64,000 nt of DNA from a bacterium (GTDB taxonomy: Bacteria > UBA8248), in contig CBDBZY010000003.1 in the NCBI GenBank assembly GCA_965213685.1, forward strand, positions 224,001 to 288,000. Reading direction: 5' to 3'. The notes under the pieces are model-generated. The model searched no databases and was not told the DNA's origin. It worked only from the letters and a program-made list of their open reading frames with translations. Positions 11,203 to 59,804 of the stretch are shown here, one piece after another. The position numbers were made by a program, and so were the translations under genes. Each line of letters starts with the position of its first letter. The stretch's first letter is position 1.

Positions 11203-11331
11203 GCCGCTGCCCTGTCCGACCGGTGGCGGACGCGCCCGGATATGGTGAGCCGCCCGGGCCGAGCTTCTCTCCTTTTTCTCGGAACTCCTCCGCAGCCGCT
11301 GCCCTGTCCGACCCGTGGCGGACGCGCCCGG
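11203..11331. repeat. Two 37-bp direct repeats (11203-11239, 11295-11331) around a 55-bp spacer
   Basis: GCCGCTGCCCTGTCCGACC(G/C)GTGGCGGACGCGCCCGG, 1 mismatch; internal palindrome GTCCG...CGGAC. Confidence 0.9.
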
Positions 11332-11386
11332 GCTCGAGGAGATTTCGTGGAGTTGAAAAGCGCCCTGGACAAAAGGAGATGATGGC

Positions 11387-12292
11387 ATGAGCCGTGTTGA
11401 CGAGACGGGGCAGACGGTGAGCGAACTCCGCAACCGCGAGGAGAGCGTGGAGGCTGCGGGCTATCGCTTCTACAATCGCTCGTGCCTGAGCATGCCGGAA
11501 TGCGCGGATGAGTCCATCGCACTCACGGTCACCTCTCCACCTTACTGGAACGCCATCGACTACGACATTCATACGAACCGGGGGAAAGGAGCGTGGCATC
11601 GGGAACGCGAATACGGGTCGTTCGGGAAAACCTTTGACGACTATCTCGTCCACGTTCAACAGGTATTCCGGGAAGTCCACAGGGCGACCCTGCCCGGCGG
11701 ATTCTGCGCCATCGTGGTGGGCACGATTCTGCACAAGGGCCGACACTATCCCGCGCCCATGCTGATTACGAGCCGCCTGCTAGACGTCGGATGGGACTTT
11801 CACCAGGACATCGTCTGGAACAAGGTGACGGGCGGCGTGAAGCGCGCAGGCTCCTTCATCCAGAACCCCAGGCCGGGATATTACTACCCGAACATCATGA
11901 CGGAATACATCCTGATATTTCGCAAGCCGGGCGAGCCGAGGCGAGGCGCCAAGCAGACGCTGGACATTGACGAACTCTTCAAGCGCGATATTGCGAACAA
12001 CGTATGGCACATCGCGCCTGTGCCCCCCAACGTCATAGACCACCCTTGTCCCTATCCCGAGGAACTGGTGCGCCGCCTGATCCTCCTCTACTCGCAAGAG
12101 GATGACGAGATTCTCGATCCGTTCCTCGGAAGCGGGCAGACGGCTATCGCGGCGTTGCGCGCGGGGAGGCGATGCGCAGGCTATGACATAGAAGCCGATT
12201 ATCTGAGGCTGGCGGAGAGTCGCATGCTGGAAGGCGGGTCCATCCGGAAATACAACCTTCTGCCTCGCTGGGAAAAGGTGGCGGCCAGATGA
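11387..12292 (+). CDS. Site-specific DNA methyltransferase (beta-class, N4-C/N6-A)
   Basis: Catalytic TSPPY near the N-terminus; HPCPYPEEL; C-terminal SAM motif ILDPFLGSG. Confidence 0.93.
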   Translation: MSRVDETGQTVSELRNREESVEAAGYRFYNRSCLSMPECADESIALTVTSPPYWNAIDYDIHTNRGKGAWHREREYGSFGKTFDDYLVHVQQVFREVHRATLPGGFCAIVVGTILHKGRHYPAPMLITSRLLDVGWDFHQDIVWNKVTGGVKRAGSFIQNPRPGYYYPNIMTEYILIFRKPGEPRRGAKQTLDIDELFKRDIANNVWHIAPVPPNVIDHPCPYPEELVRRLILLYSQEDDEILDPFLGSGQTAIAALRAGRRCAGYDIEADYLRLAESRMLEGGSIRKYNLLPRWEKVAAR

Positions 12293-12909
12293 GCGGCTAC
12301 GCGCGGGAAAGGGGCACCTTCGAGCGATTGCGGTCCGATTGTTCACCGCAGGCCAAGCGGGAGTATGAGCGGGCGTTTAATGCCCTCATGGAACGCTACA
12401 ACACCATGATCTATGAGAATCGCTTTATCACCGGCGGTGCGGTGAAAGTGTTCACCTGCGCGCTTCTCTGCTCCGTGGGAATTGATTGTACGCTGTATGG
12501 CGATCAGTCAAAGTCGGGCGATATTCTCCTGCCGAACGACCGCAAATTGTCCGTCAAGGGAACGTTCACCGGGGGGCCGAACGACGTAAAATTGATGAAC
12601 AAACTGGGGGAAGGGCACAGGGAATGGAACACCGCCACCTTGTTCGTCATCTCAGAGGTGGGCATCGTCTATGGGGCACCCGACATGGTTGACCCTGAAC
12701 ATGTCAAGGATGTGAAAGACGGCACGGCCCTCAAGAAAGTTGCGGTCGTGAATCTGATGCGGGACGCCTCCAACGTGTTCGAGATGGAACTCGCACGCAA
12801 ACCGCCCACTGAAATGACGGGTTTCAGTCATAAAGCCAGCACTGCGGTCGCGCGCCGGATTCTGCTTCAAACGCAATCGGTCGCTTTGCTCCAGACGCTT
12901 CCGGGATGA
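12289..12909 (+). CDS. Hypothetical protein, putative type II restriction endonuclease
   Basis: ATGA overlap with the MTase; GDILL...LSVK resembles a PD-(D/E)xK variant. Confidence 0.5.
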   Translation: MSGYARERGTFERLRSDCSPQAKREYERAFNALMERYNTMIYENRFITGGAVKVFTCALLCSVGIDCTLYGDQSKSGDILLPNDRKLSVKGTFTGGPNDVKLMNKLGEGHREWNTATLFVISEVGIVYGAPDMVDPEHVKDVKDGTALKKVAVVNLMRDASNVFEMELARKPPTEMTGFSHKASTAVARRILLQTQSVALLQTLPG

Positions 12910-12982
12910 TCCCCCCCTCCCCAGTGAGGTCGCTCTCCAACGCAAGCGTGTCCGTCTCTGTGGCGCTCGCACCCGCGCGTTC

Positions 12983-57889: not shown

Positions 57890-58058
57890 AGGGGGCGCCG
57901 GAAGGCGGCGCGGCCCCGGTTTCGGGTAGGGGGGAGGAAGGGGGAGTCTCACATCCCCCGGAGGACGCTATGGCGGAGGCGGGGAGGCGCGCGCTTCGGA
58001 TGGAACGCGGGAAGGGAAGGAGGAGGAGAGGCGGCTTGTTTCGCCTTGTCCGGTGCAC

Positions 58059-59591
58059 ATGACGCGCGATCAGATACTCATCCTGGATTTCGGCTCCCAA
58101 TATACCCAGCTCATCGCCCGCCGCGTGCGGGAGCTGGGCGTCTATTGCGAGATTCACCCGTGCACGGCCGACTGGAGGGTGCTCACAGGCCCGCACACGC
58201 GGGGCGTCATCCTCTCGGGGGGGCCGATGAGCGTGTATGAGGAGGGCGCACCCGGCATGGACGCCGCCCTGCTCGAAGCCGGCCTTCCCGTGCTGGGCAT
58301 CTGCTACGGGATGCAGCTGATGACCCGCATCCTCGGCGGGAGCGTCGGCGCGCCCCGCACGAGAGAATACGGACGCGCGGAGCTGGTGGTGGATGAGGCC
58401 GCCGGCATCTTTCTCGGCTCCCCCGGCCGCGAGACCGTCTGGATGAGCCACGGGGACGCGATAGAGGCCCCCCCGCCCGGCTACAGGCCGCTCGCCCACT
58501 CGAACGGCTCGCCCGTCGCGGCGATGGTCTCCGGGGACGGGCTGTGCCACGGCATCCAGTTCCATCCCGAGGTGGCCCACACCCCGCGCGGCAAGGAGAT
58601 GCTCCGCAATTTCGTGCGCGGGGTTTGCGGCTGCGCGGGCGACTGGACGATGCGCTCGTTCATCGAGGAGGCGGTCGAGCGCATCCGCCGCCAGGTCGGG
58701 GAGGAGCGCGTGGTGTGCGGCCTCTCCGGCGGCGTGGACTCGGCCGTGGCGGCGAGCCTCGTCGAGAGGGCGGTGGGCGCGCGGCTCACCTGCATCTTCG
58801 TGGACAACGGCCTGCTCCGCAAAAACGAGGCCGAGGAGGTGGTGGCGACTTTCGGGCCGAGGCTCGACCTCATCCGCGTGGACGCGCGCGGGGAGTTTCT
58901 GGGCGCGCTGCGCGGCGTGGCCGACCCGGAGGAGAAGAGAAAGCGCATCGGCGAGACTTTCATCCGCGTGTTCGAGCGCGAGGCGCGCGAGCTGGGCGAC
59001 GTGCGGTTCCTGGCCCAGGGCACGCTGTATCCCGACGTCATCGAGAGCGTCTCCTTCCGGGGGCCCTCCGCGACCATCAAGAGTCACCACAACGTGGGCG
59101 GGCTGCCCGAGCGGATGGCGTTCGCTCTCGTCGAACCCCTGCGCGAGCTGTTCAAGGACGAGGTGCGCGCGGCGGGCGAGGCGCTCGGCCTGCCCCATGA
59201 GATGCTCTGGCGGCACCCCTTCCCGGGCCCCGGCCTCGCCGTGCGCATCCTGGGCGAGGTGACCCCCGAGCGCGTGGCCACCCTCCAGGAGGCGGACGCC
59301 ATCTTCATCGAGACGCTCAGGCGCCACGGGGTCTACGGGGAGGTGTGGCAGGCGTTCGCCGTGCTGCTGCCCGTCCATACCGTGGGGGTGATGGGCGACG
59401 CGCGAACCTACGAGAACGCCCTCGCCCTCCGCGCCGTCACCAGCGAGGACGGGATGACGGCGGACTGGGCGCGGCTCCCGCCGGAGACGCTCGCCGAGGC
59501 CTCCTCGCGCATCATAGGCGAGGTGCGCGGCGTGAACCGCGTGGTCTACGACGTCTCCTCCAAGCCGCCCGGCACGATCGAGTGGGAGTAG
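58059..59591 (+). CDS. guaA: GMP synthase
   Basis: [37 protein letters not shown]. Confidence 0.97.
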
Positions 59592-59700
59592 GCGCTGAAA
59601 ATCCGCATCGGGTTGTGTTTGTTGAACGGGATGGATATTTTGAGAGGCGCAATTCTGATCGCTGCGTGAAATGTCGCGTTGCCTGCTGTTTCGCGCCGCC

Positions 59701-59804
59701 GATGCCGCCGAATTAAGGCTTGCTTGCTTGCGTGCGGTGTCGGAGGCGAAGGGGGCGACGGGTTCTGAGATGCCGCCGACTAAAGTTTGCTTGCGTTCTT
59801 GCGG
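59701..59804. repeat. Two imperfect 36-37-bp direct repeats around a 31-bp spacer
   Basis: GATGCCGCCGA...TTGCTTGC...TGCGG at 59701 and 59769. Confidence 0.65.

Follow-up and report, generated by a model that had tools for sequence, protein, structure and literature searches.

Probable scars of off-target CRISPR spacer integration, and a separate class of gene-sized insertions, in a wild bacterial genome

The 64,000-nucleotide stretch of bacterial DNA analysed here (the window, C3:224001-288000, within the 3.07-Mb bacterial part of the mixed assembly G000, GenBank GCA_965213685.1) contains five loci at which a piece of DNA stands between two copies of a local sequence, in the layout X-insert-X, and the question that these loci raise is whether a single process made them all and, if so, by means of which enzyme. 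An original prediction, made from the letters of the window, saw in them one recurrent signature of 35-70-bp duplications around captured DNA with no recombinase nearby, and proposed an uncharacterised route of capture, possibly a Cas1-like integrase, with the proviso that the five could have different causes. All five pairs are present at or near the positions first given for them, and each X is, as had been said, a different local sequence, unrelated to the others and single-copy apart from its partner; the shared signature, however, does not hold, and it is the proviso that has been borne out, the five loci having no common cause. We consider it very probable that they are two things: short units, which would be the scars of ectopic integration of spacers by the CRISPR adaptation machinery, and loci 2 and 3, which are genuine insertions with long duplications. 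The first of these readings is firm for locus 4 and probable for locus 5, and extends to some 20 more units elsewhere in the genome. Its observed basis is the geometry of the units, their genome-wide excess, the origin of inserts in the genome itself, the uninserted sites of relatives, and the presence of two adaptation modules, from all of which we infer that Cas1-Cas2 was the agent.

The short units in the window and in the genome

The two short units of the window, and the parts of which they are composed, are the following (positions are those of the window, and a strand is not assigned to them):

45627-45661, no strand: left target copy of locus 4, 35 nt, 30/35 identical to 45697-45731
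45662-45696, no strand: insert of locus 4, 35 nt, spacer-like, 34/35 identical to C43:97172-97206
45697-45731, no strand: right target copy of locus 4, paired with 45627-45661
59701-59739, no strand: left repeat of locus 5, 39 nt, 33/39 identical, with a 3-nt indel, to 59769-59810
59740-59768, no strand: insert of locus 5, 29 nt, between the locus 5 repeats
59769-59810, no strand: right repeat of locus 5, 42 nt, paired with 59701-59739

Locus 4 is found in the leader of a minus-strand accessory gene of the DUF6197 family (45264-45602), and has the layout repeat-spacer-repeat with a repeat that is not a CRISPR repeat, its 35+35 dimensions being those of the type I-G size class described below. 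The source of its insert is a Zn-alcohol dehydrogenase gene on another contig, and the limits of the match coincide exactly with the two repeat borders. That locus 4 is an off-target Cas1-Cas2 spacer integration is a firm conclusion; no empty site is available for it in G001 and G019, where the whole surrounding accessory segment of 790 bp is missing. Locus 5 is intergenic, upstream of the gene 59787-60344, and its unit measures 68-71 bp; its copies have diverged, the local alignment of the pair scoring 23 where the best of 2000 shuffles reached 19, its insert has no other match in the whole assembly, and the intergenic DNA in which it lies could not be aligned in 11 relatives. It is probably an old integration of the same type as that of locus 4.

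The absence of a recombinase, which had been noted for the window, is true of the window and not of the genome, since two CRISPR-Cas systems with Cas1-Cas2 modules are found in the bacterial contig set, both outside the window contig. The first, of type I-G on C48, comprises Cas3g (668 bits), Csb2, a weak Cas7g hit, a Cas4g/Cas1g fusion (747 bits on its model, with a cut-off of 560) and Cas2, and its array has 163 repeats, each of 36 nt, separated by spacers that measure 35-42 nt, the mode being 37. The second, of type II-C on C5, comprises Cas9 (1008 aa), Cas1 and Cas2, with an array of 34 repeats of 36 nt and spacers mostly of 30 nt. The native periods are therefore 66 bp for type II-C and 71-78 bp, with a mode of 73, for type I-G. 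Among the 23 genomes of the genus, G000 is the only one with Cas4g/Cas1g above the cut-off, and G007 and G009 have a type II-like Cas1 alone; an apparent N-terminal extension of about 300 aa in this protein was rejected, as the composition of the frame is non-coding there and the true start lies near residue 315. In the type II-C array (C5:47903-50322) there are a few odd gaps of 41-106 nt, one of which contains a partial repeat.

The bacterial contigs (49 contigs, 3.07 Mb, 61-69% guanine plus cytosine (GC), about 65% overall) were scanned for pairs of direct repeats with at least 26/30 matches, 40-600 bp apart from start to start and with no other repeat nearby. Fifty isolated pairs were found, and 22 of them stand at 66-79 bp from start to start (four at 66-67 and eighteen at 70-79), while the 12 isolated pairs spread over 100-600 bp would lead to an expectation of about 0.3 per 14-bp band. 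This peak coincides with the periods of the native arrays, and so the length mode near 35-37 bp that had been foreseen does exist, in the form of a genome-wide peak at native CRISPR periods. Ten of the 11 pairs at 45-46 bp belong to the 2231-bp tandem array on C66, a contig of 25 kb with some ten tandem units of 2231 bp. The working list of 29 short units was made up of those of the scan together with some that were weaker or had another repeat close by, namely locus 5, C29:98795 and units at 58, 60, 83, 88 and 92 bp. Their inserts are 27-57 nt long, and the sequence that follows the second copy of X never repeats the insert. The measured lengths of X cluster around 35-37 nt (locus 4 has 35, and C24:79111, C29:36927 and C14:46506 have 36). 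Most of the units are intergenic, and several events have an X that takes in a stop codon, a start codon or the two together, so that the duplication, by covering the gene ends, rebuilds both of the neighbouring genes; this placement looks like a filter imposed by selection. Two other identities for the short units were rejected: they are not duplications made by insertion sequences or transposons, because the inserts have only 27-57 nt, and they are not genuine mini CRISPR arrays, because each X is a different local sequence and not a native repeat, the matches to the native repeats being confined to C48 (164) and C5 (39).

The mapping of the inserts that had been proposed proved informative, given that six of the 29 match, over nearly their full length, some 30-40 nt elsewhere in the bacterial contigs. 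The six sources are housekeeping genes of this same genome, those for an alcohol dehydrogenase, an E1 dehydrogenase, a polyprenyl synthetase, LolA, an M29 peptidase and ThiG, and the six matches end at the repeat borders or a few bases from them. The insert lengths resolved through the sources are 35-37 nt in the three cleanest cases (locus 4, C29:36927 and C24:79111), and 31-37, about 41 and about 40 nt in the other three. The cleanest event of all is C24:79111, where 37/37 nt are identical to the source and where a 36-bp duplication and a 37-nt insert together make up the modal native unit. In the native arrays, the spacers (just under 200, with five long gaps excluded) have no match of more than 22 nt outside their own array; native arrays without self spacers, and silent sites with them, are what one would expect if working arrays are cleared of self-targeting spacers and silent sites tolerate them.

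The relatives also provide the state of the sites before insertion. Four of the short events have flanks that can be aligned (loci 4 and 5, and C24:79111 on its left flank, do not), and in the sister species, whose flanking genes are 75-90% identical, there is one X and no unit. At C58:44844 all 11 relatives are exactly 83 bp shorter and have a single X; at C12:57717 the site is uninserted in 10 of 11 relatives; and at C29:36927 and C24:35613 it is uninserted in 5/5 in each case. At the C12:57717 site, G001 (C1, about 2145537) has a 75-bp unit of its own with a different insert, and the close sister G007 is uninserted, so that this site has been hit twice independently. Empty alleles, which were to be looked for beside the filled ones, thus appear in relatives for all four of the short events that could be tested, and not in the metagenomic contigs considered below.

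Applied to 800 kb from each of three sister genomes, G019, G002 and G001 (2.4 Mb in total), the same script gave 4, 7 and 6 isolated pairs, respectively, none of them at 66-79 bp, where the density of G000 would predict about 17; with a laxer threshold the scan recovers the known event of G001. The frequency of such repeats is, as anticipated, above that of comparable genomes (22 units at 66-79 bp against none in the 2.4 Mb of the three relatives), and in consequence the burst of short units is specific to the G000 lineage.

The read data consist of four runs (X1, X4, X7 and X8, of which X4 and X7 belong to one study), all of them in the form of contigs and not of raw reads. The X4 contigs have the sequence of the window, X7 represents a strain about 98% alike, with contig coverage of 40500-48721 (57 gap letters in total) and of 59559-60499 (no gap letters), and in both X4 and X7 loci 3, 4 and 5 are filled. 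No uninserted allele of these three loci was seen in the contigs of X4 and X7, the pieces from X1 and X8 being too short to bridge them. As to the suspicion that the duplications might have been produced by the assembly, since both X4 and X7 are filled, the units are not artefacts of a single assembly and are older than the split between the two strains.

Loci 2 and 3, other gene-sized insertions, and locus 1

The remaining three loci of the window have the following components:

12850-12910, plus strand: left repeat of locus 2, 61 nt, the last codons and stop of the open reading frame (ORF) 12289-12909
12911-21235, plus strand: island of locus 2, 8.3 kb, between the 61-nt repeats, absent in G001
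21236-21296, plus strand: right repeat of locus 2, 61 nt, 61/61 identical to 12850-12910
40899-40981, plus strand: left target copy of locus 3, with the leader, the ribosome-binding site and the first 10 codons of the downstream gene
40983-41609, plus strand: inserted gene of locus 3, 208 aa, DUF4145, consisting of just the ORF and lacking its own promoter
41609-41684, plus strand: right target copy of locus 3, in which the downstream gene has its true start (41655)
11196-11331, plus strand: gene remnant of locus 1, with copies a and b, from the 3′ end of a small gene that sister genomes have intact

At locus 2, the ORF whose end is duplicated follows the gene of an N4/N6 DNA methylase (11387-12292), and the repeats, identical in 61/61 positions (73 nt at 95%), are 8386 bp apart from start to start. 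The 61-bp pair and its 8.3 kb had been correctly recognised; what had been missed is a second pair nested inside the first (17163-17276 and 21123-21236, 114 nt, 96%), and since this pair brackets the second half of the island, two nested events are likely. The island, in which the GC content falls to 0.60-0.62, carries an S24-peptidase protein (13158-14441), a GT2 glycosyltransferase (19550-20995) and ORFs of 709 and 681 aa, which, like one of 206 aa, were assigned to no family by Pfam and PADLOC. In G001 the methylase and the ORF are followed by a ThiF gene only 135 nt later, and for this reason the island is absent there. No recombinase family was found in the ORFs of the island, and PF00589 occurs in the bacterial contigs only at C19:46317 and C45:9126, serine recombinases not being part of the search. 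Runs of 12-15 C are found at 12911-12922, 17624-17637 and 21303-21317, in other words, after both locus 2 repeats and inside the island, and the uninserted site of G001 has no such run.

At locus 3 the repeats are of 76-83 nt with a 7-nt indel, the host gene is conserved, and in all nine relatives that could be aligned there is a single X and no DUF4145 gene, of which no second copy was found in the assembly. The left copy has been left with a decoy ORF of 11 codons whose TGA overlaps the ATG of the DUF4145 gene (40953-40988), an overlap that would allow translational coupling. Between X7 and the window there are at least 40 listed differences in the 600 bp around this locus (40592-41187), compared with about 1.9% over the 8.2-kb contig piece, a distribution that suggests a possible exchange of alleles around it.

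Loci 2 and 3 are true insertions with target duplications of 61-114 bp, and they are not alone, for other single-gene units with flanking repeats of 35-175 bp occur in the genome. Among them are a Fic/DOC gene between 69-nt repeats (C38:25854-27290), which G001, G007 and G009 also have and which G008 and G004 lack, and a methyltransferase-like gene (C38:36696-38256) whose flanking repeats measure 175 nt. The inserts of this class are mutually unrelated and contain no recombinase or transposase family, and the idea that they are one mobile element was rejected, as they have no sequence in common. Neither Ku nor a reverse transcriptase was found in the bacterial contigs. The remainder of the assembly, some 4.9 Mb of contigs at 33-54% GC (C64, C18, C41, C16, C51, C7, C2 and others), looks eukaryotic, because it is there that the microsatellites and all 107 reverse-transcriptase hits are located. 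The gene-sized class goes further back in time and is more widely spread than the burst of short units, and its duplications favour no particular length; on these grounds it is not assigned to Cas1-Cas2, for whose ruler 61-114 bp is too long and too variable. Our best guess for the entry of loci 2 and 3 would be recombination that re-used short homology, either through a single crossover of a circular copy or through homology-anchored illegitimate joining.

Locus 1 cannot be placed with any confidence in either class. Its pair (11196-11239 and 11288-11331) is of 44 nt with 41/44 identical, 48 nt between the copies and a period of 92 bp, and the 37-nt core first recognised is identical in 36/37 positions. 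In five relatives there is a single match to copy b together with its flanks; in the four in which the intergenic region was read (G008, G022, G006 and G021) the single copy is the 3′ end of a gene of about 105-110 aa, which in G000 is mostly deleted, and the ancestral upstream flank adjoins copy b and not copy a. Locus 1 is thus a rearranged remnant of that small gene.

Elsewhere in the window, the Rfam scan gave a tRNA-Arg only. A very GC-rich stretch of tandem repeats (49649-50754), upstream of the minus-strand gene 50598-53084, contains a 191-bp unit repeated 3.1 times with 93% identity (49805-50402), with more copies up to 50754, and a pair of 136-nt repeats at 49649 and 50387. At 283-2052 and 2121-3902 there are two adjacent minus-strand paralogues of about 590 aa each, 70-80% identical in DNA and offset by about 1841 bp.

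The proposed off-target integration and its rivals

The events that could have given rise to the short units would be as follows. A Cas1-Cas2 complex, that of the type I-G Cas4/Cas1-Cas2 module or, for the 66-bp class, probably that of type II-C, would attack both strands of an ordinary site in the chromosome, at points separated by about one repeat length (around 36 bp); a spacer-sized fragment, often a piece of one of the cell's own genes, would be joined at both cuts, and the repair of the gaps would duplicate the stretch between them. Such insertions would be retained because the cell does not read their sites as CRISPR arrays, and those surviving would be the ones between genes, or the ones where the duplication rebuilds both gene ends. 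The route is then not an uncharacterised one, as had been proposed, but the ordinary I-G and II-C adaptation modules acting off-target. The suggestion of a Cas1-like integrase fits the short units, with their native periods and their fragments of self genes, and does not extend to loci 2 and 3, which fall outside the Cas1-Cas2 ruler.

A number of observations weigh against this explanation. A source within the assembly is lacking for 23 of the 29 inserts. The length of X varies over 24-46 nt and is not fixed at 36 bp, being 39 and 44 bp in two events defined by uninserted sites, and the target sites are neither more prone to hairpins nor more similar to the native repeats than random intergenic 36-mers (P = 0.65, 0.92, 0.34). 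In three of the five clean cases a TT is found no more than 4 nt from the protospacer (chance 0.17 per case, P about 0.04), locus 4 not being one of them, and the count rises to four of five only if an ambiguity of 2 nt at the border is permitted, so that as support for a Cas4/Cas1 origin this signal is weak. The assignment to type II-C rests mainly on a single clean 36+30 unit, C14:46506. With regard to the sister genomes, G002 has a Cas4/Cas1 fusion and an array and yet no unit in its 800 kb, which means that the presence of CRISPR-Cas is not sufficient for the burst, and G001, in which no Cas1 was found (nor was it in G019), carries one unit.

Other bases for the X-insert-X layout have to be measured against the same data. 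Microhomology-mediated template switching, with no CRISPR enzyme involved, would produce all of the units if a nascent strand copied X, then a stretch elsewhere, and then returned upstream of X, which would thereby be duplicated. It predicts a sharing of bases at the junctions, and some junctions do share 2-6 nt with the source, namely those of C30:5192 (6 nt), C29:36927 (2+2 nt) and C24:79111 (2 nt); it would be at ease with targets unlike the native repeats, and would also cover the gene-sized loci 2 and 3. However, it predicts no preferred size, against the concentration of 22 of the 50 pairs at 66-79 bp, and similar rates in the sisters, against none in 2.4 Mb, and the lack of a Ku gene also counts against it; we regard it as quite improbable. 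A more radical alternative does away with insertion altogether and takes the short repeats as functional or chance duplications, whether paired regulatory sites, protein repeats or slipped tandem duplications. Three or four units do lie in frame inside long ORFs, at distances of 66, 72 and 75 bp, and might represent repeats within a protein, relatives conserve the X of locus 1 as coding sequence, and the copies of loci 4 and 5 are diverged, with no uninserted site that can be aligned; but the four units tested all have uninserted sites, for which this alternative is already refuted, six inserts copy distant genes with the match ending at or near the repeat borders (exactly so at locus 4), and in no case is the insert repeated after the second copy. 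As a general account it is extremely improbable.

It could also be supposed that one mechanism made all five loci, Cas1-Cas2 having inserted gene-sized DNA through two separate half-site reactions with a stagger of 61-114 bp. Both kinds of event do occur in one genome, loci 2 and 3 are clean insertions with empty sites in relatives and no integrase in or beside them, and further single-gene units with repeats of 35-175 bp exist; against this, no direct support for it was seen here, the Fic/DOC unit is common to G001, G007 and G009, in accordance with a class older and wider than the burst, and the gene-sized duplications lack a preferred length. We think it quite improbable, and give an equally low weight to its wider version, in which CRISPR integrases would be a general mutational and gene-capture force, similar to casposases, that would have strewn self-derived spacers over the chromosome and would reach accessory genes and even the 8.3-kb island by uncoupled half-site reactions.

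If off-target spacer integration is indeed the origin of the short units, the genome would preserve some two dozen natural events in a dated series, produced by CRISPR systems of two types, and with it an unselected sample of what adaptation takes up, namely the cell's own genes, unlike the purged native arrays. It would show directly what CRISPR adaptation costs in insertions and which of these are tolerated by selection, and would provide raw material for how new CRISPR arrays are born, and the C12:57717 site, hit independently in two species, could be tested as an integration hotspot.

Comparison with known systems

Integrase-borne islands carry att repeats at the 3′ ends of genes. Loci 2 and 3 resemble islands of this att type, and also the products of Campbell-type and of homology-facilitated illegitimate recombination, in that the insert is bracketed by a target repeat which includes a gene end; they differ from att-type islands in that there is no integrase in or beside them, the repeats are of 61-114 bp, and the insert of locus 3 is a bare ORF.

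For the short units the closest parallel is in Escherichia coli, in which, according to the portions of the reports drawn on here, over-expression leads to off-target Cas1-Cas2 integration and spawns neo-CRISPR units (10.1101/148544; PMC7054753; PMC11788318). The likeness resides in the spacer-sized insert, the duplication of about one repeat, the site that is not a CRISPR and the Cas1-Cas2 of the genome; on the other hand, here a wild genome has some 22-25 fixed events, to all appearances the work of two systems (I-G and II-C), with self-derived inserts, duplications of 24-46 bp and targets that are not repeat-like. The natural evidence is described in the 2018 preprint, in the part of it used here, as circumstantial and as coming from two species other than E. 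coli (10.1101/148544). In vitro, the Cas1-Cas2 of Pyrococcus furiosus carries out full-site integration at non-CRISPR sites of a plasmid, by means of a pair of attacks, one on each strand, with one repeat length between them, as would have occurred in G000; nevertheless, its sites, as the relevant part of that study presents them, are repeat-like at the borders and the centre, a likeness that the G000 targets do not have (PMC6698737). The type I-U/I-G Cas4/Cas1-Cas2 of Geobacter sulfurreducens takes up 36-bp spacers next to TTN, and shares with the module of G000 the fused Cas4/Cas1, the spacers of about 36 bp and the TTN motif; in the portion of that work considered it was integration into the array that was scored, while the TT signal here is weak (3/5) (PMC6547450). 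Finally, the self-targeting spacers of arrays, as far as they are treated in the part of the source cited, are likewise spacer-sized copies of host genes (PMC6990116), but those of G000 are found outside the arrays, between non-CRISPR repeats, and its native arrays hold none.

A search of the full-text literature gave no account of a wild genome in which such scars are numerous, and the earlier natural examples may be fuller than is known to us. Off-target integration itself is already known; what is new here is an unusually rich natural set of such events, which is accompanied by a separate class of gene insertions with long duplications.

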